A stretch of DNA of 62,059 nucleotides from Syntrophaceae bacterium (GTDB lineage Bacteria; Desulfobacterota; BSN033; UBA1163), in contig JACAEV010000197.1 in assembly GCA_013388645.1 (NCBI GenBank), forward strand, positions 1-62,059, written 5' to 3'. This document shows, piece after piece, positions 18,164 to 60,274 of the stretch (the stretch's first letter is position 1; each line of letters begins with the position of its first letter). The notes under the pieces are model-generated. The model ran no database searches and had not been told where the DNA came from. It worked only from the letters and a program-made list of their open reading frames with translations. A program made the translations under genes and the position numbers.

Positions 18164-18306
18164 CGTAATAATACTGCATTAAATGGACTTAGACAGTCGA
18201 TAGCTTAGGGGGGAGTGGCGATTAAAAGATGCTCTTCCCAGTGATAGACTATAGAGAGCTTTTTCTGGTTTAATGGTTGGCAAAATCTCTATGGAGATGA
18301 AGGGAA

Positions 18307-30351: not shown

Positions 30352-30852
30352 ATGAATCTTTTTTCTGCGAAATGGATGGTGATTGTTTTAATGGTCCTAT
30401 TTTCTATCTCGTTCTCATCTGGCACATTGTCAGCTCAGGCGAAATTAACGATCAAACCTGACAAAACAGTTTTGTCCCAACAACTCCTTAAAGAACCTAT
30501 TAAGTTTTTCGGATCAGGTTGGGGAGCAGGGGAGACCGTAGTGATAGAATTGTTAATTCCCAAAGGGATAGAAATGAGAGGCCTTGGTAAAGAAGAAGAC
30601 AGGGTAGGCATTGCGGTTGGCACTTGTAATGAAAAGGGGGATTTCGAAACGACAATGGGTACCCTCGCCACACTAAATTGGTTTTTTCAGGTAGCCTGGA
30701 TATTTGATGATAAAACCACATCCATGAAGTCAAGTTTTGAAAAGGCTAATCCTCTCCCTCCTGGGGAATATGAAATTTTAGCGACCGGAGCAATCACTGA
30801 TAAGGAATGCCGTGTTTATTTCGAAATATTGCCACACACAAAAGGGCAATAG
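30352..30852 (+). CDS. Secreted hypothetical protein (166 aa) inside ABC module 2
   Basis: A strong GAAAGGAGGAAG RBS and a signal peptide 'MNLFSAKWMVIVLMVLFSISFSSGTLSAQA'. I recognised no family motif. Confidence 0.6.
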   Translation: MNLFSAKWMVIVLMVLFSISFSSGTLSAQAKLTIKPDKTVLSQQLLKEPIKFFGSGWGAGETVVIELLIPKGIEMRGLGKEEDRVGIAVGTCNEKGDFETTMGTLATLNWFFQVAWIFDDKTTSMKSSFEKANPLPPGEYEILATGAITDKECRVYFEILPHTKGQ

Positions 30853-31956: not shown

Positions 31957-33561
31957 ATGGAGAGCAGTAAATGGGTAAATGTGGGGAAGATTTTGGAAAT
32001 GCATGCTAGCCACTTTCCAGATAAGCTTGGATGGAAGGACAAATACAAAAGTTTCAACTTTAGAAAATGGAACGAACGGGCATGCAGGCTTGCCCATGGG
32101 CTTACGAGCATCGGAATTGGTAGGCAAGATAGATTGGCTGTTTTAGCTTACAATAGAGGCGAGTGGATGGAATTCTATGCGGGGTGCGCAAAAGGATCAC
32201 TAATAGTCGTTCCTATATTGTTTCGCTTAGCACCGCCAGAGATTGAATATATTGTCACTCATGCAGAGTGTAAGGGATTTATAATTGAAAAGCCTTTTGT
32301 AGATACCGTGAATAGCCTTAAAGGGAAACTCCCCGTACCCAAGGATGCTTACATCTATTTGGGAGAGAAGCCCGTACCCAAGGGTTATATCTATTATGAG
32401 GACCTTATCTCTCAATCATCTCCTGCTGTGCCAGATTTAACCGTGCTTGGAGACGACACATGGACCATTATGTACACTTCCGGGACAACAGGAAAACCAA
32501 AAGGCGTGGTCATGACACATGAGACTTATCAAAGATGGTTTGCAGTGATGGGCATGAACATGCCTGTTGAGCCCACTGACAGACCCCTCATTGTAATGCC
32601 TATGTGCCATATTAACTCACTGTTCTTCTCTTTTCGACATACAATGGTATCTGCTCCAGTGTTTATTCATAACATGATCAGCTTTGATCCTGAGGAACTA
32701 CTCAGAACGATAGAAAAAAACCGCATTACTTTTACTTCTTTAGTTCCAACCCAATATGTCATGATTCTTGATCTCCCAGATGAGGTTAAAAAAAAATATG
32801 ATGTTTCATCCGTAAAACATCTTATGATCTCCTCGGCCCCAGCAGATAAAGATCTTAAGCGCGCTATTATGAATTTTTTTAAGAATGCCAAATTATGGGA
32901 GGGATATGGTTCAACTGAGACCTGTACTGTTACACTCCTAAGGCCTGAGGATCAGCTTGAGAAGTTGGGGACGATAGGGAGAGAGATTTTCGGTACCGAT
33001 AGAATCAAACTTCTTGATGAAAATAGAATGGAAGTGCCTGATGGCGAAGTAGGGGAATTGTTTTCAAGAACGCCTGCCTATTTCAAGGAGTATTTTAAAG
33101 ATCCAGAAAAAACAAAAGAGGGATTTGAGGGAGAGTGGTTTTCAGTGGGAGATATGGCTAGGAGGGATAAAGACAGCTACTATATTCTGGTTGACAGAAA
33201 GGCGAACATGATCATAACCGGAGGCGAAAATTTATATCCGTCCGAGGTAGAGCAGATTATTAGGGAGCATCCGGCTATTCAGGATGTTGTAGTCATAGGT
33301 GTCCCTGATAGGAAATGGGGCGAGGCCATAAAGGCTATTGTGGTTTTAAAAGAGAGCTGGGAAGCGAGCTCGGATCTGGAAAAAGAAATTATCGATTTCA
33401 GCAAGAATAAACTCGCCAGTTACAAAAGGCCGAAATCTATTGACTTCCTTAAAGCGGATGAGATGCCAAGAACGGCAACAGGCAAGATTAAGTATGCAAG
33501 TCTAAGGAAAAGATATGGAAGTTGGGGTGAAAAACATGAAAGTGGAGAAAACAATTTATAA
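31957..33561 (+). CDS. AMP-forming acyl-CoA synthetase
   Basis: 534 aa. Motifs 'IMYTSGTTGKPKGVVMTH', 'GYGSTET', 'GDMARRDKDSYYILVDRKANMI' and 'GGENLYPSEVE'. Confidence 0.85.
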   Translation: MESSKWVNVGKILEMHASHFPDKLGWKDKYKSFNFRKWNERACRLAHGLTSIGIGRQDRLAVLAYNRGEWMEFYAGCAKGSLIVVPILFRLAPPEIEYIVTHAECKGFIIEKPFVDTVNSLKGKLPVPKDAYIYLGEKPVPKGYIYYEDLISQSSPAVPDLTVLGDDTWTIMYTSGTTGKPKGVVMTHETYQRWFAVMGMNMPVEPTDRPLIVMPMCHINSLFFSFRHTMVSAPVFIHNMISFDPEELLRTIEKNRITFTSLVPTQYVMILDLPDEVKKKYDVSSVKHLMISSAPADKDLKRAIMNFFKNAKLWEGYGSTETCTVTLLRPEDQLEKLGTIGREIFGTDRIKLLDENRMEVPDGEVGELFSRTPAYFKEYFKDPEKTKEGFEGEWFSVGDMARRDKDSYYILVDRKANMIITGGENLYPSEVEQIIREHPAIQDVVVIGVPDRKWGEAIKAIVVLKESWEASSDLEKEIIDFSKNKLASYKRPKSIDFLKADEMPRTATGKIKYASLRKRYGSWGEKHESGENNL

Positions 33562-33582
33562 AAATGAACTTAAGGAAAGAAT

Positions 33583-35481
33583 ATGAGCGCCGAAACAATT
33601 GCAATGGCATCTCCAGGAACCGAGGGATATGTTTTGGGAAATGAAGCGGTCGCCAGAGGCGCAATTGAGTCAGGAGTATGGTTTGTTGCCTGCTATCCTG
33701 GGACACCATCTTCAGAGATATCGGATACCCTATGCAAGCTTTCTGGAGAATTTGGGTATGAATTCGAGTATTCCGCGAATGAAATCGTTGCAACTGAAGC
33801 CGCGGCAGGAGTTGCCTTATTTGGTGGTAAAAGCATGGTGATTTTCAAGGGGGCTGGGTTTTTCGTTGCCTCCGATGCATTGTTCCATCTGGTATTGGGT
33901 AGATTGTGTGGCCCCATGGTGATAGTCGCCTGTGATGATCCCTCGATGCACAGCTCAAGCGATGAAGTGGATCTGCGAATGCTCGCACAAGCCGGGTCAA
34001 TTATTACTTTGGTCCCGTCGAACGTAACCGACGCAAAAGAGATGACCATAGAGGCATTCAAGCTTTCCGAGCTGATGCGTGTGCCCGTATTGATACGTAT
34101 GAGCACACGCTTGTGCCATCAAAGGGGATTTATTAAGCTCGGCGATATACCCAAGAGAAGGGATAATAGGATGGATTGGGATCTCTTAAAAGGTAAATGG
34201 GAGCGCTTTGTTCCCATGGGGGGAGATCCCGTAAGGGGAGAGATGTTAAAGAGCATCGAAGTTATTAGGAGAACGAAAAACATTTTTGAAGACAATAAGT
34301 TAAATAAGCTTGTTAGGGCTAAGTCGGATATCGGTATATTGACCTGTGGCGTCACTTACGGTTACAGCCAAGAAGCAATAAAATTATTGGATATCGAAGC
34401 TTCTATGCTTAATGTGGGGACCATTTACCCACTTCCTGAAAAACTACTAAAAGAATTTATTCAAGAGCTAAAAACTCTCATTGTTGTCGAAGAATTGAGA
34501 CCCTATCTGGAGTCATACATCAGAGCTTTAGCCAAGGATGTAAAACCAGACCTACAGATCTTTGGGAAATGGAATGGCTATTTTCCACAGGCTTTTGAGT
34601 ATGATACGACAATAGTGATGAACTCCATCTCAAAGGCCATGAATATAAATGTGCCGATGGAGTACAAAGAGATAGAGAAGAGAACGGATTTCGTTAAAGA
34701 GTTTACTTTTCCACGAGATCCAGTATTTTGTCCCGGATGTCCGCACAGAGCTACATTTTACGCCGTTAAAAAAGTTACCAAAGATAAAGCGATCATTACG
34801 CAGGATGTTGGGTGTTATTCGATAGGGCTAACTCCTCCTTTCAAAATGGGAGACATTGTACTTTGCATGGGTGGATCCATAGGTGTCGCCTGCGGAATAA
34901 GTTATTTCAATGATAGACCTATCATCGGTTTTATTGGGGATTCAACTTTTTTCCATGCTGGTCTACCAGGCCTTATCAATGCCGTCCATAATCAAGCAGA
35001 TTTCACTCTAATTATTCTGGATAACGGAACAACTGGAATGACCGGATTCCAACCACATCCTGGGAATGATAGTCGAGGGAGAGAAAGGCTTGCCAAGAAG
35101 ATTGACATAGAAAATATTGTTAAGGCTATTGGTGTAGAAGATATAAAAGTGGTTGATAGCTATAATATAAAGGAGTTGATGGATGCGACTAGCGATGCAA
35201 TAGCTTTTAGAGGAGTATCCGTTATTATCTCCAGAAGGGCCTGTTCCATAATAAGTCGAAGAGAAAACCAGAGGAAAGGCCTAAAGGTTGTTGCTTATCA
35301 AATAGATTCGAATAAGTGTGAAGGTTGTTGGCTCTGTATTGAAAAATTCGGGTGTCCTGCTATTGAAAGGGATGGAGAAGTTGTAAAAATTCTTTCTGAA
35401 TCCTGTAATGGATGCAGCGTTTGTGCTCAAATTTGTCCATTCAATGCCATCTTTAAAGAGGATACCAATGGACAAATATGA
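33583..35481 (+). CDS. iorA: Indolepyruvate:ferredoxin oxidoreductase alpha subunit
   Basis: 632 aa. Motifs 'GNEAVARGAIESGVWFVACYPGTPSSEI' and the TPP region 'GDSTFFHAGLPGLINAVHN'. The C-terminal 2x[4Fe-4S] motifs are 'CEGCWLCIEKFGCP' and 'CNGCSVCAQICP'. Confidence 0.88.
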   Translation: MSAETIAMASPGTEGYVLGNEAVARGAIESGVWFVACYPGTPSSEISDTLCKLSGEFGYEFEYSANEIVATEAAAGVALFGGKSMVIFKGAGFFVASDALFHLVLGRLCGPMVIVACDDPSMHSSSDEVDLRMLAQAGSIITLVPSNVTDAKEMTIEAFKLSELMRVPVLIRMSTRLCHQRGFIKLGDIPKRRDNRMDWDLLKGKWERFVPMGGDPVRGEMLKSIEVIRRTKNIFEDNKLNKLVRAKSDIGILTCGVTYGYSQEAIKLLDIEASMLNVGTIYPLPEKLLKEFIQELKTLIVVEELRPYLESYIRALAKDVKPDLQIFGKWNGYFPQAFEYDTTIVMNSISKAMNINVPMEYKEIEKRTDFVKEFTFPRDPVFCPGCPHRATFYAVKKVTKDKAIITQDVGCYSIGLTPPFKMGDIVLCMGGSIGVACGISYFNDRPIIGFIGDSTFFHAGLPGLINAVHNQADFTLIILDNGTTGMTGFQPHPGNDSRGRERLAKKIDIENIVKAIGVEDIKVVDSYNIKELMDATSDAIAFRGVSVIISRRACSIISRRENQRKGLKVVAYQIDSNKCEGCWLCIEKFGCPAIERDGEVVKILSESCNGCSVCAQICPFNAIFKEDTNGQI

Positions 35482-36073
35482 GATATTAGTCGCTGGTGTT
35501 GGGGGACAAGGGGTTATTTTTATTAGCAATGTATTAGGATACGCAGCTCAACGTGCTGGTTATAAAAGAGTTGTGGGTGGAGAAATTCATGGCCTGGCCC
35601 AAAGGGGGGGGAGTGTCGCAAGCTACGTCAGGTTTGGAGAAGGTGTTTACGGACCGATTGTACCGTTGGGCTGTGCCGATATAATCATAGGTCTAGAGTT
35701 TATGGAAGGATTAAGACACATTAATCGATTGTCGAAAAATGGCGCACTTGTACTCTCCAATGTTAGGGTACCCACAATGGGTATGATGGTCAATAATCTT
35801 GCATACCCCAATTCGTTAAATGTTTTATCTAAATTACAGACGTTATTTGATAGAGTATTTTTATTCGAATCTCGGAACACCCCATGTCATTTTGGAAGTT
35901 TGGGTTTGGAAAATATGATCCTCTTGGGTGCAATCGTTAACCATTTTCTTGATTTCCCGATTGGAGAGGAAGATATCCAAGAAAGTATTAAAACGCTTAC
36001 TAAGAAAAATATGGTTGAAAGAAATTTAGAAGCTTTTCAAGCAGGGATGAAACTTCGCCCCTTAATAACATAA
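35468..36073 (+). CDS. iorB: Indolepyruvate:ferredoxin oxidoreductase beta subunit
   Basis: 'MDKYEILVAGVGGQGVIFISNVLGYAA...GEIHGLAQRGGSV'. ATG 35468 overlaps the iorA stop by 14 nt. The track ORF starts further upstream, inside iorA. Confidence 0.85.
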   Translation: MDKYEILVAGVGGQGVIFISNVLGYAAQRAGYKRVVGGEIHGLAQRGGSVASYVRFGEGVYGPIVPLGCADIIIGLEFMEGLRHINRLSKNGALVLSNVRVPTMGMMVNNLAYPNSLNVLSKLQTLFDRVFLFESRNTPCHFGSLGLENMILLGAIVNHFLDFPIGEEDIQESIKTLTKKNMVERNLEAFQAGMKLRPLIT

Positions 36074-36096
36074 ATGGAAATATTTGAATTGTCATA

Positions 36097-37251
36097 ATGC
36101 CAAGAAATAATGTTTTCAGCAAAGTTGAACGGTATTATAGAGACTATGGTGCCAGGGCGAAGGAACTGAAGGCTCAAGGGATAAAGGTAATCGCCTATCT
36201 TTGTTCTCTTACTCCCATAGAAATCATAACAGCAGCGGGATTCCTGCCTTTAAGAATAAGAGGTGACACCAGAGAACCTATAACCATAGGAGATACAAAA
36301 TTAGAGACTATAGCGTGTCCTTTTTTGAGAAGTTGCTTTGATGTTTCACTTAAAGGAAGATATGATTTTTGTGATGGTCTGATTATTCCGCATGCATGCG
36401 ATAGCATTACAAGAACGTATAGCGTCTGGCGTTATTCGATTGGAATAACTTATTCTCATTTTGTAAATCTACCTCATAAAGTCAGCGAGACATCGTTGAA
36501 ATTCTTTAAGGCGGAGCTGACAACATTCAAAAATAGCCTCGAAAGGTTTGCTGACAAGAAGATCTCAGATGAAGCCCTAGCGGAAGCGATAGATTTGAAT
36601 GTAGAAAATCGAAAGAAAGTAAAGGCTTTATATCAATCAAGGAAATCCAACCCACCCCCTATTTCAGGGGCTGAAATAGGAAAAATATTAACCGCTGGTA
36701 TGGGTTTACCTGTGTCTGAATCGAATGAGTTGTTTGATGAGTGTTTAAGGCAGATCAAGCTAAAAAAAGAGATTCCTTTGAAGAAAAGACCTCGGATCAT
36801 GATTTTAGGTAGTTGTTTGGACAATGTTGACCTTATTACTTTTGTTGAGGATGCCGGTGCTGATGTTGTTGTTGATAGCTTATGTATGGGAACGAGAGAT
36901 TACTGGCGCGATATCGGATCTGTGGATGATCCAATGCGTGCAATTGCGCTTCTATATCTGAATAAAATGAATTGTCCCAGGACCTACAGAGAGAAGGTGG
37001 GTAAGAAATTTAGGGAGGATGCAGAGGCAAGATTCGGTGATATCGGTTTGTTAATTAATGAATTCAAGGTCGAGGGTGTCATTCTGTATGTTTATAGAAA
37101 CTGCGACCCATTTGGTTTTGAAGTACCCGCAAGAAAGGAATATCTTTCTTCGCTTCATATCCCAGTTCTATACCTGGAAGGTGAATACTCTTCAGGAGCT
37201 ATTGGGCATTTAAAGACAAGGATCAAGGCATTTCTTGAGTTGATTGGATAG
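36097..37251 (+). CDS. HGD-D family protein (2-hydroxyacyl-CoA dehydratase / benzoyl-CoA reductase BcrC-BadD-HgdB family), smaller subunit
   Basis: 384 aa. Motifs 'YYRDYGARAKELKAQGIKVIAYLCSLTPIEIITAAGFLPLRIRG', 'ETIACPFLRSCFD', 'PHACDSITRTY' and 'RNCDPFGFE'. Confidence 0.8.
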   Translation: MPRNNVFSKVERYYRDYGARAKELKAQGIKVIAYLCSLTPIEIITAAGFLPLRIRGDTREPITIGDTKLETIACPFLRSCFDVSLKGRYDFCDGLIIPHACDSITRTYSVWRYSIGITYSHFVNLPHKVSETSLKFFKAELTTFKNSLERFADKKISDEALAEAIDLNVENRKKVKALYQSRKSNPPPISGAEIGKILTAGMGLPVSESNELFDECLRQIKLKKEIPLKKRPRIMILGSCLDNVDLITFVEDAGADVVVDSLCMGTRDYWRDIGSVDDPMRAIALLYLNKMNCPRTYREKVGKKFREDAEARFGDIGLLINEFKVEGVILYVYRNCDPFGFEVPARKEYLSSLHIPVLYLEGEYSSGAIGHLKTRIKAFLELIG

Positions 37252-37262
37252 GAAAAAGCGGA

Positions 37263-38615
37263 ATGACTGACATACAAAACAATGCTGGAAGAGGAAGAAG
37301 AAGAGGACATGCTACGCGAGCTGCGACTAAGATTCCCTACATGGTGAAAAGCTCCATCATCGATACTTTAAAGGCGAAAGAAAAGGGGAAAATCCTCGCC
37401 TACACATTTGTTTATTGTTGCTACGATGAAATTATAAGGGCCATGGATATAATACCTATTTGGACTGAGAATTACTCTGGAGTATGCGGCGCTAAGAGGG
37501 ATGCCGAAAGATTCCTTAGTAGGGCTGAATCATTGGGATTTTCACGTTCTCTTTGCACTTATGCATTATGTGGAATAGGCTTTGACCAATGGCGGGAAGA
37601 ACTCGGTACTATGCCTCAGGATGCTCCTTGGGGGGGGCAGATGAAGCCCGATCTTATGTTATCAAGTGGGCAGGTCATTTGTGATCCGAGGTATAAATGG
37701 TATCAGGCAGTACAACAATATATGCCAGATGTCCCCATTTATACTGTTGATTTACCATGGCCTGTTTATGAGGATGATTTGGATTTACCTTCTGTTGAAT
37801 CCTATTATATTGAATATCTTAAGGAAGAATTGCATGGGCTGGTTAAGTTTTTGGAGAAGCATACTGGAAGAAAGATGAATTGGGACAAGCTGAGTGAGTT
37901 AGTTGATTTGACCGAAAGGACATGGAATTTAATCTGGGAGACATATGAACTCAGACGGACTGTTCCTACACCTATGGATACAGGAGATGCGATGAACACG
38001 ATGGTGCCCATCCTTTATATGATGGGTACCCAGGAAGGATATGACTTCTTTTTAGAATTAAATAAAGAGCTAAAGGAGAAAATTAAGAGGAAAGAAGGGG
38101 TTATTTCGAATGAAAAATTTAGACTACTATGGGGTGGTGGATTACCCCCATGGTTCGCCTTAGGTGACTTTAATTATTTTAACAGTAAGGGAGCTGTTTT
38201 TCCGGTTGAGGTAACCTATCGCGTCATTGAACCTATCAATGACCTGAACATACCTAATACGAATGGTCCTGTTGAACGTATAGCCTGGAGGTGGCTTAGG
38301 TATTGGACGTATTGGTACAAGAAGGCAAAAAGTAGGCCAGGCTCTGAGCCAGACGTAGAACGTTTAATACAATACATTGAAGACTACCGAATCGATGGTG
38401 TTGTCGTGCACTTAGCCTCTTCGTGTCGAACAGCACATCTGAGTCTTATTTGGCAATTAAGTCAATTAAAAAAGATATACAAACAAATCCCTTGCTTATT
38501 TCTAGAGAGTGATATGATCGATATAAAGCAATATTCAAAATTACATACAAGAAATATGATAGATGCGTTCATTGAAATCTTGGAATCCAACAAAGAAAAA
38601 AGGGGAAATTGCTAA
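37263..38615 (+). CDS. HGD-D family protein (HgdA/BcrB-like), larger subunit
   Basis: 450 aa. Motifs 'ILAYTFVYCCYDEIIRAMDIIPIWTENYSGVCGAKRDAERFLSRAESLGFSRSLCTYALCGIG' and 'DGVVVHLASSCRTAHLS'. Confidence 0.78.
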   Translation: MTDIQNNAGRGRRRGHATRAATKIPYMVKSSIIDTLKAKEKGKILAYTFVYCCYDEIIRAMDIIPIWTENYSGVCGAKRDAERFLSRAESLGFSRSLCTYALCGIGFDQWREELGTMPQDAPWGGQMKPDLMLSSGQVICDPRYKWYQAVQQYMPDVPIYTVDLPWPVYEDDLDLPSVESYYIEYLKEELHGLVKFLEKHTGRKMNWDKLSELVDLTERTWNLIWETYELRRTVPTPMDTGDAMNTMVPILYMMGTQEGYDFFLELNKELKEKIKRKEGVISNEKFRLLWGGGLPPWFALGDFNYFNSKGAVFPVEVTYRVIEPINDLNIPNTNGPVERIAWRWLRYWTYWYKKAKSRPGSEPDVERLIQYIEDYRIDGVVVHLASSCRTAHLSLIWQLSQLKKIYKQIPCLFLESDMIDIKQYSKLHTRNMIDAFIEILESNKEKRGNC

Positions 38616-38634
38616 GTTTCAGTAGGAGAGTTAA

Positions 38635-39300
38635 ATGGATGCTCGAATAGCCGTTAGAGAAAGGAGAAGTATCCGCTGTTTCAGGCCAGATGAAGTTCCC
38701 GAAAATATTATTCGGGAAATCTTGGATGTGGCAAGATGGGCTCCTTCTTGGGGGAATACCCAACCTTGGGAGTTTTATGTAGTGACAGGGAATGCTCTAG
38801 AAAAATTTAAAAAACTGAATCGTCAACAGTATATGGACGGAATACCCCCATCACCAGAAATCCCTATGCCAAGGGTTTGGCCCGAGGTGTTAAAAAAGAG
38901 GTATACGAGCTTAGGGAAAAGGCTTTTAACCTCCATGTCGATTGCAAGAGAAGATACAGAAGGTCGCAGTAGATATTATGCAAAAATGTATGGTCTTTTT
39001 GGTGCTCCCTGCCTAATTCTCACATGCATCGAGAAAAGCCTCTCCATTGAATATGCTATGATAGATGTTGGGCTTATTAATCAGACAATCTGTTTATTGG
39101 GCCATGAAAGGAATCTCGGCACTTGTATGCTTGCAGCTTCTGTATCGTATCCAAAGCTTTTAAGAGAATTGTTACCTATTCCAAAAGATAAACTTATCGT
39201 CATTGGAACCGTTCTCGGTTATCCTGATTGGGATTCCCCAGAAAATCATTTTGAGCGGGAAAGGGCAACGATTGACGAACAGGTCACCTGGGTGAGTTAG
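38635..39300 (+). CDS. Nitroreductase-fold flavoprotein
   Basis: 221 aa with 'RRSIRCFRPDEVPENIIREILDVARWAPSWGNTQPWEFYVV'. Confidence 0.85.
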   Translation: MDARIAVRERRSIRCFRPDEVPENIIREILDVARWAPSWGNTQPWEFYVVTGNALEKFKKLNRQQYMDGIPPSPEIPMPRVWPEVLKKRYTSLGKRLLTSMSIAREDTEGRSRYYAKMYGLFGAPCLILTCIEKSLSIEYAMIDVGLINQTICLLGHERNLGTCMLAASVSYPKLLRELLPIPKDKLIVIGTVLGYPDWDSPENHFERERATIDEQVTWVS

Positions 39301-39423
39301 ATAAATGGATTTGCAACGATTTTCGAAAAAGGGGTCGCCACATGTTTTTTCAGGAGTGATCTGCGTGGTTTGATAATCTGATAAGAATAGTAAGTTTGTT
39401 TAGGAAACGGTTAAAGTGTTTCT

Positions 39424-40410
39424 ATGAGAAAAGAAAAGGTATTTATTACTGATCCCTTATTGAGTAGTATTCCAAAAATGGCACAAAAGAGGTTTCCGAA
39501 AGAGAACGACCAAATCGAATGGATGATTGCGAATAGTGGCGAAAAAGAAGAACTGTTGAAGGTAATACCCTGCGTAAATATTATTGTTGTTGGGAGGCAA
39601 CAAATAACGCGAGAACTCATCCAAAGGGCTGATAAGGCTTATTTTATCCAGCAATGTGGAATGGGATACGACAATATAGACATTGCAGCGGCACGCTCGA
39701 GAAACATCGTTGTTGCAACTGCTGGTCCGGCAGGAGTTATTTCGGTGGCTGAACATACCATTTTACTGATGCTGGCAGTGGCAAAGAGCCTTCCACTTGC
39801 TCATAATTCAACGATAAAGGGAGATTGGCTCTTTCCAAATCTTTTAGGGCATGTTTACGAAGTTTACGAGAAAACATTAGGTATTATCGGATTGGGGCAG
39901 ATTGGAACCCGGGTTGCAGTTCTCGCTCACGCCTTAGGAATGAAGATTCAATATTATGACCCATACCGCAAGAGTGTTAGTGACCTTGAGTTTCCTATTA
40001 AGTTCGGTTCTTTGGATGAACTTCTGGTTACTTCTGATTTCGTTTCCATACATACTATTTTAAACGAAGAAACTCGCCATATGATCAGTAAAGACAAATT
40101 GCGTATGATGAAATCGACTGCATACCTTATTAACACATCTCGAGGAGAAATTGTTGATGAAGATGCTCTTGCTGATTTTTTAGAAGAAGGGAGAATTGCA
40201 GGCGCAGGCTTGGATGTTTTCGGCGCGCACACGGAAGGTCCAAAAAGAGGGTCAAAGATTCTAAGCTTACCCAATGTAGTGCTTACCCCACATCTTGCTG
40301 GATCTACAGCAGAAGCCTTTTTTAGAAATTATTACGTTCATTCATTAGAAAATATTATGCGGACTGTAAGGAAAGAAGCACCGTTATATATCGTGAGACA
40401 AGGAGAGTAG
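39424..40410 (+). CDS. D-isomer-specific 2-hydroxyacid dehydrogenase (NAD-binding)
   Basis: 328 aa. Motifs 'LGIIGLGQIGTRVA', 'LINTSRGEIVDEDAL', 'GAGLDVF' and 'VVLTPHLAGST'. Confidence 0.85.
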   Translation: MRKEKVFITDPLLSSIPKMAQKRFPKENDQIEWMIANSGEKEELLKVIPCVNIIVVGRQQITRELIQRADKAYFIQQCGMGYDNIDIAAARSRNIVVATAGPAGVISVAEHTILLMLAVAKSLPLAHNSTIKGDWLFPNLLGHVYEVYEKTLGIIGLGQIGTRVAVLAHALGMKIQYYDPYRKSVSDLEFPIKFGSLDELLVTSDFVSIHTILNEETRHMISKDKLRMMKSTAYLINTSRGEIVDEDALADFLEEGRIAGAGLDVFGAHTEGPKRGSKILSLPNVVLTPHLAGSTAEAFFRNYYVHSLENIMRTVRKEAPLYIVRQGE

Positions 40411-40424
40411 GAGGAGACAGAAGT

Positions 40425-42089
40425 ATGGAAGAAAAGGAAAAGGATTCCGACGTGATGGATAGTTATCATGAGAAACCTACTGGGTTTAAAACTTGGTCTG
40501 GTCTTCCACTAAAGAATTGGTATGGTCCTGGGGATGTCTCAACAATTAATTATGGGAAGAATATAGGGGATCCTGGTAACTTCCCTTATACCAGGGGAAT
40601 CCATCAGGATATGTTTAGGGGCCGCTATTGGACACGTAGGGAGGTAACTGGATATGGGACCCCTGAAGAGACCAATCAGAGGTTAAAGTACTTGATCAAG
40701 GAAGGTTCTGGGGGACTCAATGTCATTCCTGATAATCCCAGCATCATGGGAATCGATTCTGATCATCCACGGGCGAAGGGTGAGGTAGGTGTGCAAGGAG
40801 TTCCAATGTGCACTCGCCAAGATATGGAACTGCTGATGGAAGACATACCTCTTGAAAAGATCAGTATGTCCCTTATAGTTTCTTCTACTCAAACACCAGT
40901 AGCGCTTTCCCAATATATTGCTCTCGCAGAGAGTAGAGGGTTGAAGCCGTCTGATTTGGCGGGAACCACTCAAAACGATCCCATTCACTGCCGATATGCT
41001 GGATTCGCCAATTCCTCACCCATCAACCTTGCATTAAAAACTGGAGTGGATGTCATTGAATACTGCACCCTGAATATGCCCCGATGGTACCCTATTAATG
41101 TAAATATGTATGACCTCAGAGAACAGGGTATTAACGCTGCACAAGAGCTTGCTTTCGGTTTCTCCATGGCCATGCTGTATATTCAGGGTGTACTTAACAG
41201 AGGTCTCGATATAGACTCATTTGCTCCCAGATTCGCTTTTTACTGTTCGGCTCATATTGATTTTTTTGAGGAAATTGCCAAGTTAAGGGCTGCACGTCGA
41301 ATTTGGGCAAGAATTATGAAGGAGCGGTTCGGAGCTAAGAATCCTAATTCATTAAAATTTAAGTTCGGTATACATACTGCAGGGTGTTCCCTCGTGCCTC
41401 AGCAACCATTGAACAATATTATTCGTGTTGCCTATGAAGCCATGGCCGCGGTGCTGGCCGGTGTTCAATCCCTTCATTGTTGTTCCTATGATGAACCTAT
41501 TGCACTACCTACTGAGGAGTCTGTGAGGCTGGCTATTAGAACTCAGCAAATCTTAGCTTACGAAACAGGTGTGGCTCTTGTTGCTGACCCCTTGGGAGGG
41601 AGCTATTTCATAGAAAACCTGACGGAAGAGATAGAGCAACAGGCGAATATTATCATGGAGAAAATAGAGACCCAAGGAGGGATGAAAAAGGCTCTTCAGA
41701 TGGGGTGGATAGATGCACAAATCGATGAGGCGGCATTGAAATACCAAAGAGAGGTGGAAAATGGGGAACACATTGTGGTGGGATTGAACAAATTTCGAAC
41801 GGATGAGGAGACTTCAGTAGGGAAGGTCCATCGAATTTCCCCGGATTCGGAGGAGAAACAGATTACAAGGCTGAAAAAGCTAAGAGAATCTCGGGACGAA
41901 AAGAAAGTGAAAGATGCTTTAAGGGCGCTCAAGTCAAGAGCGGAAGAAGGAGAAAAAGAAAATTTGATTCCAGCCATGATCGAGGCATCCCGTCAGTACG
42001 CAACAATTGCAGAAATCCTTGGAACTGTTCGGATTGTAATGGGGGAACCATATGATCCTTTGGGGGTATTGAGCCACCCATTTTTTTGA
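40425..42089 (+). CDS. Acyl-CoA mutase large (substrate-binding TIM-barrel) subunit, methylmalonyl-CoA mutase family, divergent
   Basis: 554 aa. Motifs 'FPYTRGIHQDMFRGRYWTRREVTGYGTPEETN', 'GLNVIPDNPS', 'GTTQND' and 'RIWARIM'. There is no C-terminal B12 domain. Confidence 0.8.
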   Translation: MEEKEKDSDVMDSYHEKPTGFKTWSGLPLKNWYGPGDVSTINYGKNIGDPGNFPYTRGIHQDMFRGRYWTRREVTGYGTPEETNQRLKYLIKEGSGGLNVIPDNPSIMGIDSDHPRAKGEVGVQGVPMCTRQDMELLMEDIPLEKISMSLIVSSTQTPVALSQYIALAESRGLKPSDLAGTTQNDPIHCRYAGFANSSPINLALKTGVDVIEYCTLNMPRWYPINVNMYDLREQGINAAQELAFGFSMAMLYIQGVLNRGLDIDSFAPRFAFYCSAHIDFFEEIAKLRAARRIWARIMKERFGAKNPNSLKFKFGIHTAGCSLVPQQPLNNIIRVAYEAMAAVLAGVQSLHCCSYDEPIALPTEESVRLAIRTQQILAYETGVALVADPLGGSYFIENLTEEIEQQANIIMEKIETQGGMKKALQMGWIDAQIDEAALKYQREVENGEHIVVGLNKFRTDEETSVGKVHRISPDSEEKQITRLKKLRESRDEKKVKDALRALKSRAEEGEKENLIPAMIEASRQYATIAEILGTVRIVMGEPYDPLGVLSHPFF

Positions 42090-42134
42090 ATAAGTTATCA
42101 ACATTTATAATGAAATTTCTGTACGGAGGGAATA

Positions 42135-43655
42135 ATGAAGAATGAGAAGTTTGATGCGATTGTGATTGGTGCGGGGGTGGGGGGACCCACAGCAGGAGCC
42201 ATCCTTGCGAAAAAAGAAGGGATGAAAGTCCTTGTACTTGAAAAGGCCTCTCGAGTTGGGGGAAGAGATATTTCCTTTAATTTCAGCGAGGAAGACCCAG
42301 AGACCTATAAACGATTGATTGCTAATGCGGCTCATACTTGGTATGTCAAGTCGGAACCGGATCTAACGGAACTTTTTAAGCAGGGGTATCTAAAGGGATA
42401 TAGTTTTGAAGCAGGAATTCATACTCTTCAAATCACCGAAAGAGGACGGACAAATGTTTGTCTCACCTACTTGGGGAAACCATTGACTCTCTTCCCTGCT
42501 GTGAGTGCAGGGTGGTGGCATGGCGGTGAATTATACCATTTCGAAAATGGCTCTGAGAGGGGGGGGAATTTCCCCTGGATGAATGAGAGAGACAAGGAGG
42601 AGTGTGGAAAGATCAACCGGTTGATGGTAAAAATTTCAGCTGATGAGGCTCATTCCTATGATCATATAAGTTTGAAGGAATGGATGGAGGTGAGAACTGA
42701 TAATCAAAATACCAAAGACTTCCACTACGTGAATGGTACGATGAACTGTACTATCAATGATCCCGCAAACATTTCTGCAGGGGATTGTATTCTTATGAAT
42801 CGGGCTGTGGCAAGAGCAGGTAAACGATTTTCATATGGTGGGTGTTCAACACCAGGCCTTCCAGGTTTCGTACAAATCCCGTTGAAATTATGTGAGGTAA
42901 TTGAGGAGCATGGCGGGAAAGTTGTAACTCGGGCAACGGTGAAGGAGGTATTAATTGAGAATAGAAAGGTGAAAGGAGTCCTTGTGGAGATTGAAGGAGC
43001 AGAAGAAAAGATCGAATGTCCAATTGTCATCAATTCTGGGATGGTTAATGAGATGTTCAATTACATTCCTGAAAACCACTTTCCTTATACTTTCGTCAAA
43101 CGGGTGAAAGGCTTTTGGCGGGCTGGAATAGGTGCGGTCTATTTTGGACTCGGCCACAAGATTGTAAAAGAACATTTGACTTTTGTTCCTAAAATTGCAG
43201 GCAAAGAAGACGGTTTCGACAGCGATGTCCGCATGGGGTTCTGGGATAGCTCAGGCATGGATCCAGGCCGCGCCCCGGAAGGCAAGCAGTTATTGGATGC
43301 GTATGTATCCCTTGTAGATATAGAGGCTCATAACCTGGAACTCGTAAATTTGGCATATGAGAAAATGAAAAAATTCATGGAAGATAATTATCAGGGCTTT
43401 AAACAGGCACTCGAATGGACTCTGTATACTGTTTCTGACAGTCTCGTACCAGTCGCCCAGGCACCTTATCAAGTTGGGGATGCAAGACCCAAAGCAAAAA
43501 GTCCTTTTATTGAAGGGCTCTATATGGCATCAGACAGTTCGGAGTGTTCTATGGCTGCAAATGATGCAGCCGTCCATGCCGGAATCATTGCAGCAAGCCG
43601 TATTAGTGGAAAGGATTATGTAAGCGAAATTCTACCTGAATATCTCAGAGATTAA
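42135..43655 (+). CDS. FAD-dependent oxidoreductase, phytoene-desaturase (CrtI)-like family
   Basis: 506 aa. The dinucleotide fold is 'KFDAIVIGAGVGGPTAGAILAKKEGMKVLVLEKASRVGGR'. A GGAGGG RBS is present. Confidence 0.75.
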   Translation: MKNEKFDAIVIGAGVGGPTAGAILAKKEGMKVLVLEKASRVGGRDISFNFSEEDPETYKRLIANAAHTWYVKSEPDLTELFKQGYLKGYSFEAGIHTLQITERGRTNVCLTYLGKPLTLFPAVSAGWWHGGELYHFENGSERGGNFPWMNERDKEECGKINRLMVKISADEAHSYDHISLKEWMEVRTDNQNTKDFHYVNGTMNCTINDPANISAGDCILMNRAVARAGKRFSYGGCSTPGLPGFVQIPLKLCEVIEEHGGKVVTRATVKEVLIENRKVKGVLVEIEGAEEKIECPIVINSGMVNEMFNYIPENHFPYTFVKRVKGFWRAGIGAVYFGLGHKIVKEHLTFVPKIAGKEDGFDSDVRMGFWDSSGMDPGRAPEGKQLLDAYVSLVDIEAHNLELVNLAYEKMKKFMEDNYQGFKQALEWTLYTVSDSLVPVAQAPYQVGDARPKAKSPFIEGLYMASDSSECSMAANDAAVHAGIIAASRISGKDYVSEILPEYLRD

Positions 43656-43681
43656 AAAGCAGGAAGGAAAAGGATTGGATA

Positions 43682-44077
43682 ATGGCACTTAAAAGAAAGG
43701 TTAGAATTCTAATTGCCAAAATTGGGCTTGATGGTCATGATAGGGGAGCAAAAGTCCTGGCCTCAATGTTGAGGGATAATGGTTACGAAGTCATTTATCT
43801 GGGTCTTTATAATACCCCCGAAATGGTTGTTCAAAGTGCCATCCAGGAAGCGGTTGATATCATTGGCATTAGCTTTCATTCGGGGGAACATTTAACATTG
43901 ACTCCGATATTAATGAATAAACTCCGCGAACATCAGCTGGGCGAAATTCCCGTTATTATAGGAGGTATCATCCCAATGGAGGATGAGAACATATTGATAG
44001 GAATGGGTGTCAAACGGGTTTTTCGGGGTTCACTGGTTAGTGAAGTCATAGAATATTTGAATCATTATTTCAAATGA
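43682..44077 (+). CDS. Cobalamin-binding small subunit of the acyl-CoA mutase
   Basis: 131 aa. 'RILIAKIGLDGHDRGAKVLASMLRDNGYEVIYLG' carries the DxHxxG motif, with 'IGISFHSG' and 'VIIGGIIP'. Confidence 0.85.
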   Translation: MALKRKVRILIAKIGLDGHDRGAKVLASMLRDNGYEVIYLGLYNTPEMVVQSAIQEAVDIIGISFHSGEHLTLTPILMNKLREHQLGEIPVIIGGIIPMEDENILIGMGVKRVFRGSLVSEVIEYLNHYFK

Positions 44078-44117
44078 AGAGGAATTTCCATTTGAATTTG
44101 ACGGAGAGGGAATAATC

Positions 44118-45284
44118 GTGGATTTTTCTTATACAAACGAACAAGAGATCTTAAAAGATATATTGCGAGAGTTCTGTGATAAGGAGATAACACCAAAAGT
44201 AGCGGAATACGACAGAAAACGAGAATTTGATTATAGCATCATTGAAAAGCTGCATAAACAAAAACTTTTAGGTGTCGTCATCCCTAAGGAATATGGAGGG
44301 GTAGGTGGCAGTTTAATTGATCAAGCAATTATTTGTGAAGAGATTGCCCGTAATTCATTTACAGCGATGGTAGTAACGAATTTTACTTGGTATATGCCCT
44401 ACGAGATACTAAGAGTGGGGACAGAGGAGAATAAGAAAAGGTGGATTTCCTATCTATTTGATGGGAAAAAATTGGGTGCGCATTCTGGTACAGAGGCCGA
44501 TGCCGGAACAGATGCAGCATCGGTTCGAACCTGGGCTAAACTGGAGGGGGATGAATGGGTCATTAATGGAACAAAATGGTTTGTCTCCAATCTTGGCAAA
44601 GCAGATTATTACTTCATTAGTTTACGTACTGCTGAAGACCGTTACAATGGAATGAGCACAATCTTAGTAGAAAAAAATACGCCTGGTATGACCATTGGAA
44701 GAAGGGTTGAACACATTAGCGTACGAGGAATAAATAATGGTGAGTTAATATTTGAGAATTGTCGGGTCCCTAAGGAGAACCTCATCGGTAGATTGAATAA
44801 GGGATTTTATGACATGTTGGTCCTATATGATGTAATAAGATTATTTTTCGCCATAGGGGCAGTTGGGATAGCAAGGGGTGCCTTGGAAAGCTCAATAAAA
44901 TTTGCTCAAGAACGGCAACAGTTTGGTAAGCCCATTGGGGATTTTCAGCTAATCAGAGCAATGATTGCTGACATGGCGACAGAGATCGATGCTGCAAGAT
45001 TGTTAATTTATAGAGCATTGGATATGGAGAGAAAAGGACTCAAACATACAAAAGAGACTTGCATGGCAAAACTCTATGCCACCGAAATGGCCGATAGAAC
45101 TACATACAAAGCTATACAAATACATGGAGGATATGGAGTTACTACGGATTTCCCTGTAGAACGTTATTGGAGAGATGCCCGTATCACCACTATAGGTGAA
45201 GGGACAAGCGAGATCCAAAGGTTGATTATCGCTTCTGAAATATTCAAGAGCGAAAAAATCGTGCTTGACTCAGCACTCGATTAA
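44118..45284 (+). CDS. Acyl-CoA dehydrogenase (adjacent to etfBA, Bcd-like arrangement)
   Basis: 388 aa. Motifs 'GTEADAGTDAAS', 'INGTKWFVSN' and 'YWRDARITTIGEGTSEIQRLIIA'. It has a GTG start. Confidence 0.88.
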   Translation: MDFSYTNEQEILKDILREFCDKEITPKVAEYDRKREFDYSIIEKLHKQKLLGVVIPKEYGGVGGSLIDQAIICEEIARNSFTAMVVTNFTWYMPYEILRVGTEENKKRWISYLFDGKKLGAHSGTEADAGTDAASVRTWAKLEGDEWVINGTKWFVSNLGKADYYFISLRTAEDRYNGMSTILVEKNTPGMTIGRRVEHISVRGINNGELIFENCRVPKENLIGRLNKGFYDMLVLYDVIRLFFAIGAVGIARGALESSIKFAQERQQFGKPIGDFQLIRAMIADMATEIDAARLLIYRALDMERKGLKHTKETCMAKLYATEMADRTTYKAIQIHGGYGVTTDFPVERYWRDARITTIGEGTSEIQRLIIASEIFKSEKIVLDSALD

Positions 45285-45294
45285 TTTGGGTATT

Positions 45295-46062
45295 ATGTTG
45301 AATATAGCAGTCTGTATCAAGGAAATACCCGAGGAAATTCGGGTAAATAAGAAAACATACACCTTGATTAGAGAAGGTATAAAGGGGGTTATTAATCCGT
45401 GCGATAAAAATGCGATAGAGCTATCCGTCACCTTAAAGGAGAAACATGGGGGGAAGGTAACGCTGATTTCCATGGGCCCTCAAAATGTGGAAAAGACTTT
45501 AATACATGGCTTGGCCATGGGGGCGGATCAAGCAGTATTTATTTGTGATAAGGCATTTGCTGGCGCTGATACACTTGCAACAGCATTTACCTTAGTAACA
45601 GCTATAAAAAAACTGGGTCATTTCCAATTAATACTTTGCGGTAAAGCAAGTGCAGACAGTGGCACGCAGCATATTGGACCCCAGATTGCCAATTTTTTAG
45701 GGATTACTCAAGTTACATACGCAGTCGGTCTTGCTGTTGAAAACAACAAGGTACGGGTGAAAAGGCAGTTGATGGATGAATACGAAACTGTGGAAGTGGA
45801 ATTTCCAGTTTTGATAAGCGTTGTTAAAGGAATGAATGAGCCAAGGATTCCATCGTACGTTGACATATATGAAGCATCCAAGAAGGACTTTTTCAGATGG
45901 TCCATTAATGATCTCGGTTTAAAGGAGGACCAGGTAGGTCTAACGGGATCCCCAACGAAAATTAGTAAAATCTTACCACCAGAGACGATTCGGCAGTGCA
46001 AGATGCTACAAGGTACATTAGAGGAAATATGTAATGATTTAGCCCAAATATTGAAGACTTGA
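45295..46062 (+). CDS. etfB: Electron transfer flavoprotein beta subunit
   Basis: 'MLNIAVCIKEIPEE...', 'ISMGPQNVEKTLIHGLAMGADQAVFI' and 'LILCGKASADSGT'. The start is set at ATG 45295, downstream of the ACAD stop. Confidence 0.88.
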   Translation: MLNIAVCIKEIPEEIRVNKKTYTLIREGIKGVINPCDKNAIELSVTLKEKHGGKVTLISMGPQNVEKTLIHGLAMGADQAVFICDKAFAGADTLATAFTLVTAIKKLGHFQLILCGKASADSGTQHIGPQIANFLGITQVTYAVGLAVENNKVRVKRQLMDEYETVEVEFPVLISVVKGMNEPRIPSYVDIYEASKKDFFRWSINDLGLKEDQVGLTGSPTKISKILPPETIRQCKMLQGTLEEICNDLAQILKT

Positions 46063-46073
46063 AGGGTTAAATA

Positions 46074-47051
46074 ATGGAGAACAACAATCAGTATCGAGGT
46101 GTCTGGGTATTTGTAGAGCATAAAGGCAGCCAAATAGAAAAGTGTAGTCTTGAGCTTTTATCTTTAGGGCGCAATCTTGCTAGCGAACTTCAGGTGGATC
46201 TTTCAACCCTTGTGATAGGGAATCTCATGGGACGATTATCTGAGGAATTGATGTACTATGGGGTGGATGTCGTATATGTCGTGGAAAACCCTGTTCTTGA
46301 AAGGTATACTACTTCTCCCTACCATAAAATTACTTGTGACTTAATCAAAGAATATAGGCCGGAGATAGTTCTATTTAGCTCTACACCTATAGGTATGGAT
46401 TTAGCCCCCAGAGTTGCTTGTGAACTAAAGACTGGCCTGGTTGCTCACTGTGTAGATTTGAAAATAGATAAGGGCAAGAGACAGTTACTTCAAATTTGTC
46501 CTTACGGTGATTATATGGCAACTATGATCACCACAGTGAAACCACAAATGGTTACAGTTCAGCCTGGGGTAACCCCTCTACCTCCAAGGGGAGAATTCAA
46601 ACAGGGACAAACAGTGCAGATTGAACGGGAAATAGATATTGGGAATATAAAAATCATAGAAGTGGTGAAGCCAGAAAAAGCTGATATGGGAAAGATCGAG
46701 GAATCGGATGTTATTATTGCAATCGGGCGGGGGGTGAAGAACATGAGCTTGGCTGAGAAACTGGCAGAATGCCTTGGAGGAATATTGGGTGCTACACAGC
46801 CAATTGTTGATGCTGGACTATTACCGGAATCACGTATGATCGGCCAGACAGGGAAAGCAGTCCGACCTAAGGTATATATTGCTTGCGGAATTTCTGGGGC
46901 AGGGCAACACATCGTAGGAATGAAAAATTCTGGGTTAATTGTAGCTATTAATACTGACGAAAAGGCTCCCATATTTAAAGTTGCTGATTACGGTATCATT
47001 GGAGATGTTTCTAAAGTGATCCCTGCATTAATTGCCGCTTTAAACCGCTGA
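46074..47051 (+). CDS. etfA: Electron transfer flavoprotein alpha subunit
   Basis: 325 aa. Motifs 'VWVFVEHKGSQIEKCSLELL' and 'VYIACGISGAGQHIVGMKNSGLIVAINTDEKAPIF'. Confidence 0.9.
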   Translation: MENNNQYRGVWVFVEHKGSQIEKCSLELLSLGRNLASELQVDLSTLVIGNLMGRLSEELMYYGVDVVYVVENPVLERYTTSPYHKITCDLIKEYRPEIVLFSSTPIGMDLAPRVACELKTGLVAHCVDLKIDKGKRQLLQICPYGDYMATMITTVKPQMVTVQPGVTPLPPRGEFKQGQTVQIEREIDIGNIKIIEVVKPEKADMGKIEESDVIIAIGRGVKNMSLAEKLAECLGGILGATQPIVDAGLLPESRMIGQTGKAVRPKVYIACGISGAGQHIVGMKNSGLIVAINTDEKAPIFKVADYGIIGDVSKVIPALIAALNR

Positions 47052-60103: not shown

Positions 60104-60274
60104 AAAAGATTAGAATTTATTTTCTTCATAACACTTGACCATTCAAACCCTTAAAAAGCCTTCCACGGTCATGTGGATTGAAGAGAATGCTTGTGTTCTA
60201 TTTAATATGTTACACCTCTGAGAAGCGGAGACTTGAATGGAGGTTATCGTTGCGTCAAGAGATGGAGGAAAGTA

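Follow-up and report, generated by a model that had tools for sequence, protein, structure and literature searches.

A radical-enzyme core on a Syntrophaceae contig that encodes no archerase: activation in trans as the favoured explanation

How is a radical enzyme charged when no activating ATPase is encoded beside it? The question is raised by two adjacent genes of a Syntrophaceae bacterium (assembly GCA_013388645.1, contig JACAEV010000197.1), whose products of 384 and 450 aa resemble the benzoyl-CoA reductases (BCR), the 2-hydroxyacyl-CoA dehydratases (HAD) and the double-cubane protein DCCP. The window analysed here is the complete 62,059-bp contig, with 36 kb before the pair and 23 kb after it. 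The first-pass annotation of this DNA had noted that no HgdC/BcrA-like activator is encoded in it, and had proposed either that the core is activated in trans or that it uses a new, ATP-independent electron-injecting partner. The comparative evidence favours the first proposal. With a probability of roughly 0.65, we consider that the core still needs an archerase, the activating ATPase of these systems, which would be encoded elsewhere in the genome, and that it serves the dehydration or the reduction of an acyl-CoA made by the neighbouring ligase.

The gene of the small subunit (ORF1, 36097..37251, 384 aa) and that of the large subunit (ORF2, 37263..38615, 450 aa) are both on the + strand, separated by 11 nt, and their coordinates are exactly those previously given to them. 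The whole PF06050 profile is matched by both products (E = 1.1e-78 for ORF1 and 6e-53 for ORF2), and with 21% identity to each other (BLASTP E = 1e-8) they are distant, old paralogues, which bears out the description of the locus as two adjacent paralogous HGD-D genes. Their assignment to the dehydratase/BCR-type family, as a catalytic heterodimer, holds as well, on the PF06050 matches, the likeness to BzdNO and HadBC and the cluster ligands. Indeed, the closest PDB match of the N/gamma-like ORF1 product is BzdN (8s02_B, 1.5e-49), followed by HadC (3o3m_B) and DCCP (7yyl), and those of the O/beta-like ORF2 product are BzdO (8s02_A, 4.5e-24), HadB (3o3m_A, 6e-20) and then MbdO.

Six cysteines of ORF1 (C36, C74, C101, C263, C293 and C336) are invariant in 84 of 84 relatives, and each of them aligns with a cysteine of BzdN; HadC has no equivalents of C36 and C263. 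The spacing of the six agrees with the published DCCP motif (PMC7317905). In BzdN, the [8Fe-9S] double-cubane is the electron-storage site (PMC11971306), and ORF1 is predicted from its ligands to carry such a six-Cys cluster for electron storage and transfer. In ORF2, C98, C140, C388 and E69 correspond to Cys95, Cys128, Cys380 and Glu65 of BzdO and to their HadB equivalents, and they are invariant in all relatives. This subunit is thus the predicted catalytic one, with a three-Cys [4Fe-4S] cluster leaving one iron site open.

No curated equivalog cut-off is reached by either protein, and we therefore place the pair outside every characterised dehydratase or reductase clade. ORF1 scores 208 bits on the double_cubane family NF040772 (cut-off 350), 181 on BzdN TIGR03190 (454), 157 on BcrC TIGR02263 (421) and 139 on HadC NF052456 (700), and ORF2 scores 119 bits on HadB NF052455 (750), 106 on BzdO TIGR03191 (449) and 70 on NF040772. 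Judged by sequence, the pair is the catalytic heterodimer core of an uncharacterised but widespread clade of the BCR/HAD/double-cubane radical-enzyme family. Homologues of ORF1 with 60-70% identity are found by the hundreds in metagenome-assembled genomes (MAGs) of Desulfobacterota type, and the best N-subunit match among the GTDB species representatives has 70% identity.

That no activator is encoded in the window was confirmed in several ways. Pfam scans found no PF01869 (BcrAD_BadFG) domain among its ~56 ORFs, and no hidden ASKHA domain in its unannotated ORFs or in the protein with a helix-turn-helix (HTH) and a Fer4 domain encoded at 48815. A six-frame tblastn search of the window with eight archerases from relatives gave only chance-level matches, the best of which (E = 0.008, 29 bits) falls within an enoyl-CoA hydratase gene, and it revealed no remnant of an ATPase pseudogene in the window. 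Look-ups with the proteins encoded at the window ends did not extend it, as they yielded a 2-kb Logan contig at most, and the pair is also present on a 19-kb Logan contig that is nested inside the window. Since the window is the entire contig, the absence of the ATPase is a property of the window only and is uninformative on the rest of the genome.

What the relatives do is therefore central to the argument. A scan of the GTDB species genomes, ranked by N-subunit similarity, gave 80 loci, hosted by Desulfobacteraceae, Desulfatiglandales, Syntrophus (including S. buswellii DM-2), Dehalococcoidia and one Bathyarchaeia MAG. A scan of JGI metagenomes, seeded with window-specific peptides of the O subunit (ORF2), samples the family differently; both samples are biased, and the counts that follow are not population frequencies. 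In 73 of the 80 GTDB loci, the pair is directly adjoined by one or two genes for PF01869-type ATPases, the contig being too short in four others and the ATPase lacking in three. These ATPases are canonical archerases, with matches to MbdQ (4e-70), HadI (1e-68), HgdC (4e-59) and DCCP-R (1e-48). The view that loss of the ATPase is rare, as 3 of 76 GTDB loci would have it, was corrected by the metagenome scan, which contributed many more ATPase-less loci.

When the loci of both scans were grouped by O-subunit clustering, the subfamily of the window (group 3, with a six-Cys N subunit) comprised 118 loci, of which 97 have an adjacent ATPase, 13 have none and 8 could not be assessed. The sister subfamily (group 1) comprised 39, divided into 8, 22 and 9 in the same order. 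The family arrangement of a core with its ATPase encoded alongside, absent from the 62-kb contig, is thus found in 97 of the 110 assessable loci of its own subfamily. This count weighs heavily against the case for ATP-independent novelty, which required that an activator not be consistently co-conserved with the pair; the other way in which that case could have fallen, by placement within a characterised dehydratase clade, does not apply because the pair lies outside all of them.

In the sister subfamily (L120-L174, for example L123, L124, L129, L148, L157 and L158), the N subunit has lost the distal-cubane residues C36, C263 and C293, retaining a HadC-like three-Cys set. Its genes typically stand in clusters of the order IorAB-ligase-(SSF transporter)-N-O-ligase-thioesterase-UbiD, from peat, wetland and sediment metagenomes.

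Neither the N tree nor the O tree sets the ATPase-less loci apart; in each, they are nested or scattered among loci that have the ATPase. A particularly clear case is offered by a syntenic segment of the order recJ ... N-O-[ATPase]-SLT-DeoC-VCA0040-RtcB-archease, in which L006, L092 and L094 have the ATPase gene and L002, L011 and L012 show a clean deletion of it; tblastn detected no remnant of it in the three deletion gaps. The absence of the ATPase from the operon is a rearrangement that recurs and is apparently neutral.

The proteins themselves point the same way. Among the columns that are at least 95% conserved in the ATPase-linked proteins (103 in N and 192 in O), L002, L011 and L012 have changed none, and among themselves these three loci show dN/dS values of 0.09-0.20. 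In the sister subfamily, the substitution load at the columns conserved in the other subfamily is the same in ATPase-less and ATPase-linked members (0.108 versus 0.110 for O, p = 1.0; 0.159 versus 0.140 for N, p = 0.37), and the C-terminal consensus of the two sets is identical. The window proteins, compared with those of L009, give dN/dS values of 0.22 (N) and 0.18 (O), which denote purifying selection like that on the neighbouring genes. No sequence signature is common to all the ATPase-less loci. From these columns, loads and dN/dS values, we conclude that ATPase-less cores are functional and generally bear no footprint of a changed activation.

In Desulfobacteraceae-type MAGs (L002-L008, L011, L012, L092 and L094) the pair stands in a conserved housekeeping neighbourhood, composed of DciA, two Band_7 proteins, ACT and RecJ on one side and SLT_2, DeoC, a VCA0040-like protein, RtcB and archease on the other. 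The N-O-ATPase cluster of S. buswellii is located near yidC, jag and mnmE. Neighbourhoods of this kind suggest that part of the clade serves a core function and not a specialised catabolic one.

How would activation in trans proceed? We infer the trans-encoded ATPase, the substrate and its reaction, and the role of the neighbouring 2-oxoacid:ferredoxin oxidoreductase IorAB as follows. IorAB would oxidise an (aryl)pyruvate to the acyl-CoA and reduce ferredoxin; a distant ASKHA-fold archerase would take up the ferredoxin electron and, upon ATP hydrolysis, inject it into the double-cubane of the 384-aa subunit, from which it would pass to the catalytic [4Fe-4S] cluster of the 450-aa subunit. The latter would convert the acyl-CoA supplied by the co-transcribed ligase, either through ketyl-radical dehydration of an (R)-2-hydroxyacyl-CoA or through reduction. 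The archerase gene would have left the operon and might be shared with a paralogous system. There is precedent for such an arrangement, as an orphan, unlinked archerase gene is known in Geobacter (e.g. Gmet_0544; PMC1924859). Furthermore, dithionite and Ti(III) citrate fail to reduce the double-cubane of DCCP unless its ATPase and ATP are supplied (PMC7317905), and BzdNO alone shows no forward activity with these same two reductants (PMC11971306). Because neither responds to them, a flavoprotein or an ordinary ferredoxin domain is disfavoured as the electron injector.

Between the two chemistries, dehydration is suggested by the recurrence, beside the pair, of D-isomer-specific 2-hydroxyacid dehydrogenase (2HADH), 2-oxoacid:ferredoxin oxidoreductase and acyl-CoA dehydrogenase (ACAD)/electron-transferring flavoprotein (ETF) genes. 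A 2-oxoacid oxidoreductase, a D-2-hydroxyacid dehydrogenase, a CoA-activating enzyme and an ACAD-ETF module together mirror the Fld and Had pathways of the amino-acid-fermenting clostridia, and the window has them all, the oxidoreductase corresponding to the oxidative branch; as far as gene content goes, the context of a dehydratase pathway is in place (2HADH at 39424, ligase at 31957, ACAD-EtfBA at 44118-47051). In 2-hydroxyacyl-CoA dehydratases the activating electron is recycled over many turnovers (PMC11971306), so that, should the pair catalyse a dehydration, it would require its activator in no more than catalytic amounts, and a distant, unlinked gene would suffice.

The characterised dehydratases (HadBC with HadI, HgdAB with HgdC, FldBC with FldI, LcdAB with LcdC) share with the pair the fold family and the heterodimer of a catalytic and an accessory subunit. 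However, beyond the HadB and HadC cut-offs that are missed, the accessory subunit of the window has six cysteines of the double-cubane type in place of the three-Cys [4Fe-4S]-SH site of HadC, the activator gene is not beside the pair, and CoA activation would fall to an adjoining AMP-forming ligase instead of a family III CoA-transferase, two of which are encoded elsewhere in the window. Likeness to DCCP/DCCP-R of Carboxydothermus hydrogenoformans and to YjiM/YjiL of E. coli is likewise partial. NF040772 gives the top NCBIfam score of ORF1, with six similarly spaced ligand cysteines, and by spacing C52, C75, C98, C140 and C388 of ORF2 correspond to positions a, b, c, d and g among the seven cysteines of DCCP. 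Nevertheless, the pair falls short of the NF040772 score and of its homodimer with a seven-Cys motif: it is a heterodimer of diverged paralogues, its O subunit lacks two distal-cubane ligands, and DCCP and YjiM, unlike it, have their own ATPase gene adjacent (PMC7317905, PMC9351452).

Could the pair instead be a true Bzd-type class I aryl-CoA reductase, with stoichiometric ATP hydrolysis by distant BzdPQ-like subunits? This explanation overlaps with activation in trans on how the core is charged and differs from it on the chemistry; we regard it as unlikely. Its support comes from the resemblance to BzdNO of Aromatoleum sp. CIB (PDB 8S02; PMC11971306), whose two subunits are the top sequence matches and are encoded in the same N-then-O order, with the six Cys positions of BzdN shared by the window N subunit and the three Cys and the catalytic Glu of BzdO by the O subunit. 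Moreover, the BzdPQ-BzdNO complex is thought to be transient (PMC11971306), as a trans-encoded ATPase would need. In many relatives two ATPase genes complete a four-gene cluster, and some relatives lie near aromatic-degradation genes (UbiD-like, phenylphosphate-synthase-like); relatives are annotated as 'bzd-type benzoyl-CoA reductase N subunit', and the Dehalococcoidia homologues are treated as bzdNOPQ in the literature (PMC5736913).

However, the window pair is only ~30% identical to BzdNO and stays far under the TIGR03190 and TIGR03191 cut-offs, the six-Cys N subunit of Bzd type being recognised by alignment only. The BzdO His131/Glu65 pair and the set of pocket and thioester ligands (including Trp46, Tyr97, Gln274, Tyr298, Leu302 and Leu383) are not conserved as such. 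The acid/base His131 is replaced by Arg (R143) in all ORF2 relatives, Glu381 by Arg (R389) and Trp46 of the benzoyl pocket by Cys; Glu65 and Tyr97 are kept; the thioester ligand Gln274 has become Leu and Tyr298 is deleted; and the ring-contacting Leu383 (position 391 of ORF2) is Trp in most relatives and Ala in the window. As these acid/base, pocket and thioester residues differ, benzoyl-CoA is an unlikely substrate, the chemistry still being of the family type. The genomic context agrees: the window operon has no P and Q genes, the adjoining ligase is not of the benzoate-CoA ligase type, no dienoyl-CoA hydratase, Had or Oah set was recognised beside the pair, and the 2HADH, IorAB and mutase neighbours point to 2-oxo/2-hydroxy acid metabolism rather than to the benzoyl-CoA pathway.

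Two cysteines of ORF2 that are found in neither BzdO nor HadB, C75 and C103, are invariant throughout the clade, and a third one, C52 at the BzdO Trp46 position, is nearly so. Taken with R143 and R389, these extra cysteines hint, as far as sequence can, that the head group of the substrate is anionic or differs in some other way, or that there is a further metal or thiol site.

Several observations weigh against activation in trans. No ATPase gene lies in the 36 kb that precede the pair or in the 23 kb that follow it. The ATPase-less state is common and old. In the sister subfamily, 22 of the 30 assessable loci have no neighbouring ATPase, and the cluster of the window has been kept without one in L095, whose O subunit has 76% identity and which shows no ATPase within 4.8 kb upstream and 6 kb downstream. 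No distal ATPase was found on the contigs of the other ATPase-less loci among the best 120 matches of either ATPase-homologue search, and the two long-contig matches that were inspected proved to be ordinary N-O-ATPase clusters. Finally, certain substitutions fall where an ATPase would bind. The C-terminal loop/helix of O is part of the ATPase-docking surface predicted by homology to DCCP:DCCP-R, which is acidic on the DCCP side (PMC9351452). There, S423Q and D428H/Q are shared by the window, L009 and L095, and E426K by the window and L095, L009 keeping the Glu that is invariant in 107 of 107 ATPase-linked proteins. In N, the residue at position 335, which precedes the ligand C336, is otherwise aromatic: 96 of 97 ATPase-linked proteins have Tyr there, and BzdN, HadC and DCCP have Phe. 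The window and L009 carry Asn instead, as do, by convergence, the ATPase-less, IorAB-linked loci L148, L157, L158 and L162.

The 62 kb without an ATPase, the retention of the cluster in L095, the losses of acidic residues in the docking loop and the convergent Y335N in two ATPase-less, IorAB-linked lineages are also what speaks for a core that works without ATP, charged by the 2x[4Fe-4S] domain of IorA, by ferredoxin or by a neighbouring flavoprotein, or running in the oxidative (reverse) direction. To these may be added D362G in N, found in the window and L009 only, the frequency in metagenomes of IorAB-ligase-N-O loci devoid of an ATPase, and the fact that isolated BzdNO runs the reverse reaction with viologens and without its ATPase (PMC11971306). 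The C-terminal segment of O is moreover enriched in lineage-specific changes (9 of 34 columns versus 16 of 249, Fisher p = 0.001), an enrichment that is weaker if a 4-residue deletion is counted once and that concerns a region picked after the data had been seen.

We nonetheless hold such ATP independence to be improbable. Most loci of the subfamily have the ATPase (the 97 of 110 above), the double-cubane resists chemical reductants without ATP (PMC7317905), and the docking surface is mapped through homology to DCCP, which is homodimeric. The docking loop is unchanged in other ATPase-less lineages (L002/L011/L012, L139/140, L089), and the ATPase-less and ATPase-linked members of the sister subfamily are indistinguishable. 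As for the flavoprotein, the nitroreductase is not conserved with the pair and is of an ordinary NAD(P)H type. Of the two possibilities raised at the outset, activation in trans is thus the one that gains; the ATP-independent one is weakened but keeps a small probability, since loci combining IorAB, the ligase and the HGD-D pair without an activator do recur.

A narrower form of the idea, to which we grant still a little less, is that the lineage of the window, L009 and L095 (ligase-IorAB-N-O-2HADH-mutase) has dispensed with the archerase, in favour of charging through IorA or ferredoxin or of reverse running. The peculiarities of the window lineage are small but real. Of the 146 columns that are ultra-conserved in O, this lineage has altered 8-9, and the other ATPase-less loci of the subfamily 0-4. 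Its changes lie round the catalytic Cys388 (E384L, F386S/Q and W391A/M) and in the C-terminal loop/helix, where I418M and T439I/L accompany the three substitutions already described. The pocket variant of the window also occurs in L058 and L114, which have ATPases. Read from sequence, and post hoc, the docking-loop, pocket and Y335N changes are suggestive of an altered activation; if the lineage were indeed archerase-free, D428H/Q, E426K and Y335N would be footprints of a new docking partner.

The selection analysis effectively disposes of the idea that the pair is a decaying, non-functional remnant left after ATPase loss, for which the missing ATPase is the sole support. Neither ORF is disrupted, no cluster ligand has been lost and the catalytic Glu is still in place; dN/dS is 0.18-0.22, similar to that of the neighbouring genes, and the cluster order is kept in L009/L010 and L095.

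The genes around the pair form a tightly packed run on the + strand, from 31957 to 47051. It begins with the AMP-forming acyl-CoA ligase (31957..33561, PF00501/PF13193), a generic enzyme of the FadD5/FadD13/feruloyl-CoA-synthetase type which probably activates the substrate acid; in many loci the pair has a homologous ligase (550-970 bits) as a neighbour, whether or not ATPases are present. The IorA-like alpha subunit follows (33583..35481), with POR_N and TPP_enzyme_C domains and a C-terminal Fer4 dicluster (2x[4Fe-4S]); it reaches 645 bits on TIGR03336, for a cut-off of 651. The IorB-like subunit, with its POR gamma-type domain (35408..36073, PF01558, E = 3e-28), probably starts in reality near 35468, the gene call of L001 being 201 aa long. 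Downstream of the pair are a nitroreductase-fold FMN protein (38635..39300, PF00881), a 2HADH of generic type (39424..40410, PF02826/PF00389), the large subunit of a B12-dependent acyl-CoA mutase (40425-42089, PF01642), an FAD oxidoreductase (42135-43655, PF01593/PF13450), the small B12-binding subunit of the mutase (43682-44077, PF02310) and, within 44118..47051, an acyl-CoA dehydrogenase (Pfam ACAD domains) followed by EtfB and EtfA (45265-47051; ETF, ETF_alpha). ACAD-EtfBA may provide an enoyl-CoA redox step and possibly ferredoxin coupling.

The same gene order, nitroreductase included, is found in L009 and L010, which are 86-89% identical to the window, and L095 has the order ligase-IorAB-N-O-2HADH-mutase-FAD protein-B12 subunit, with no nitroreductase. 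The first-pass annotation had singled out IorAB and the nitroreductase as flanking the pair, and asked whether the three co-occur without an activator. Both neighbours are present in the window. IorAB is recurrent, also with ATPase-bearing versions of the pair, and with the ligase it accompanies an HGD-D pair in many metagenomic loci that have no activator nearby. The nitroreductase does not: as a conserved partner it was discarded, being confined to the window and L009/L010, absent from L095 and all other loci, and closest to 3gr3 and to generic NfnB-type NAD(P)H nitroreductases. It is a lineage-specific neighbour and not a partner.

IorAB lies beside HGD-D pairs in at least five lineages (L009, L095, L033/L105, L077/L108, L124/L129 and L148/157/158), and so do 2HADH homologues (L095, L101/102, L110-112, L058, L081 and L125). 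In Thauera, a 2-oxoacid:ferredoxin oxidoreductase is encoded with BCR and regenerates the reduced ferredoxin. For BCR, korAB is listed as the ferredoxin-regenerating system (PMC5736913). Two arrangements are instructive here: L058 has the order OFOR (a four-subunit 2-oxoacid:ferredoxin oxidoreductase)-ligase-N-O-ATPase-ATPase-2HADH-glycyl-radical enzyme, together with the pocket variant of the window, and L033/L105 have N-O-ATPase-ATPase-ligase-IorAB-ligase. As these orders show, the module logic of the window also exists with ATPases in cis. Among the clusters with ATPases, that of L058 comes nearest to the logic of the window; on its flanks are two PFL-like glycyl-radical enzymes (108-1706 and 15840-18299) and a sigma-54 response regulator. 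Some relatives adjoin UbiD-like and phenylphosphate-synthase-like genes and many stand in housekeeping neighbourhoods; the clade probably covers several substrates.

The mutase trio has the same order in L095 (1042, 966 and 201 bits). Its large subunit is closest to the 2-hydroxyisobutyryl-CoA mutase HcmA (4R3U, 431 bits), with Val, Ile and Gly at the substrate-determining positions of HcmA Ile90, HcmA Asp117 and MCM Arg207, respectively, and an unusual NDPIHCRYAGF motif. The FAD oxidoreductase inserted between the two mutase subunits is of the phytoene-desaturase/amine-oxidase type, and the trio is kept in L095.

Elsewhere in the window are genes for beta-oxidation enzymes, for two Liv-type ABC transporters and for additional ligases and CoA-transferases. 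The protein encoded at 48815-49885 (356 aa) has an N-terminal winged helix (TrmB-like, sub-threshold), a middle part that matches no family and a C-terminal 2x[4Fe-4S] ferredoxin domain. It may act as a regulator that senses redox state, and L032 encodes a weak homologue at ~5 kb from its own pair. A cobW/HypB/UreG-type GTPase (60233-60949) followed by a HypA homologue (60953-61324) makes a nickel-insertion chaperone pair and not a mutase chaperone, and a corrinoid adenosyltransferase fragment is located at 59708-60103. On the - strand, 7021-8193 encodes a tandem TetR protein of 390 aa with two full TetR_N + TetR_C units, divergent from a beta-oxidation operon that starts at 8693. Between 14754 and 31902 lie two complete Liv-type ABC uptake systems. 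Each is interleaved with large ligases of the AMP-binding type (615 and 645 aa; AMP-binding_C_3), an arrangement suggestive of uptake coupled to CoA activation. A conserved ORF of 166 aa without family match (30352-30852) sits between a binding protein and an ABC ATPase gene, and is also present in L009/L010.

In conclusion, if the ATP-independent explanation were true, it would be the first such charging of a double-cubane or of a BCR/HAD core, and would matter for low-potential redox biochemistry. If activation in trans is correct, the finding is mainly a caution for annotation, as the activator gene of BCR/HAD systems would frequently be unlinked from its core in uncultivated anaerobes. The clade is often annotated as 'benzoyl-CoA reductase', probably wrongly, given the Arg in place of the BzdO His and the 2-oxo/2-hydroxy (aryl) acid context, and this bears on how claims of anaerobic degradation of aromatics, when made from metagenomes, are to be read. 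The clade occurs widely across Desulfobacterota, Syntrophia and Dehalococcoidia and, with a cofactor set between those of DCCP, BzdNO and the dehydratases, merits biochemistry.

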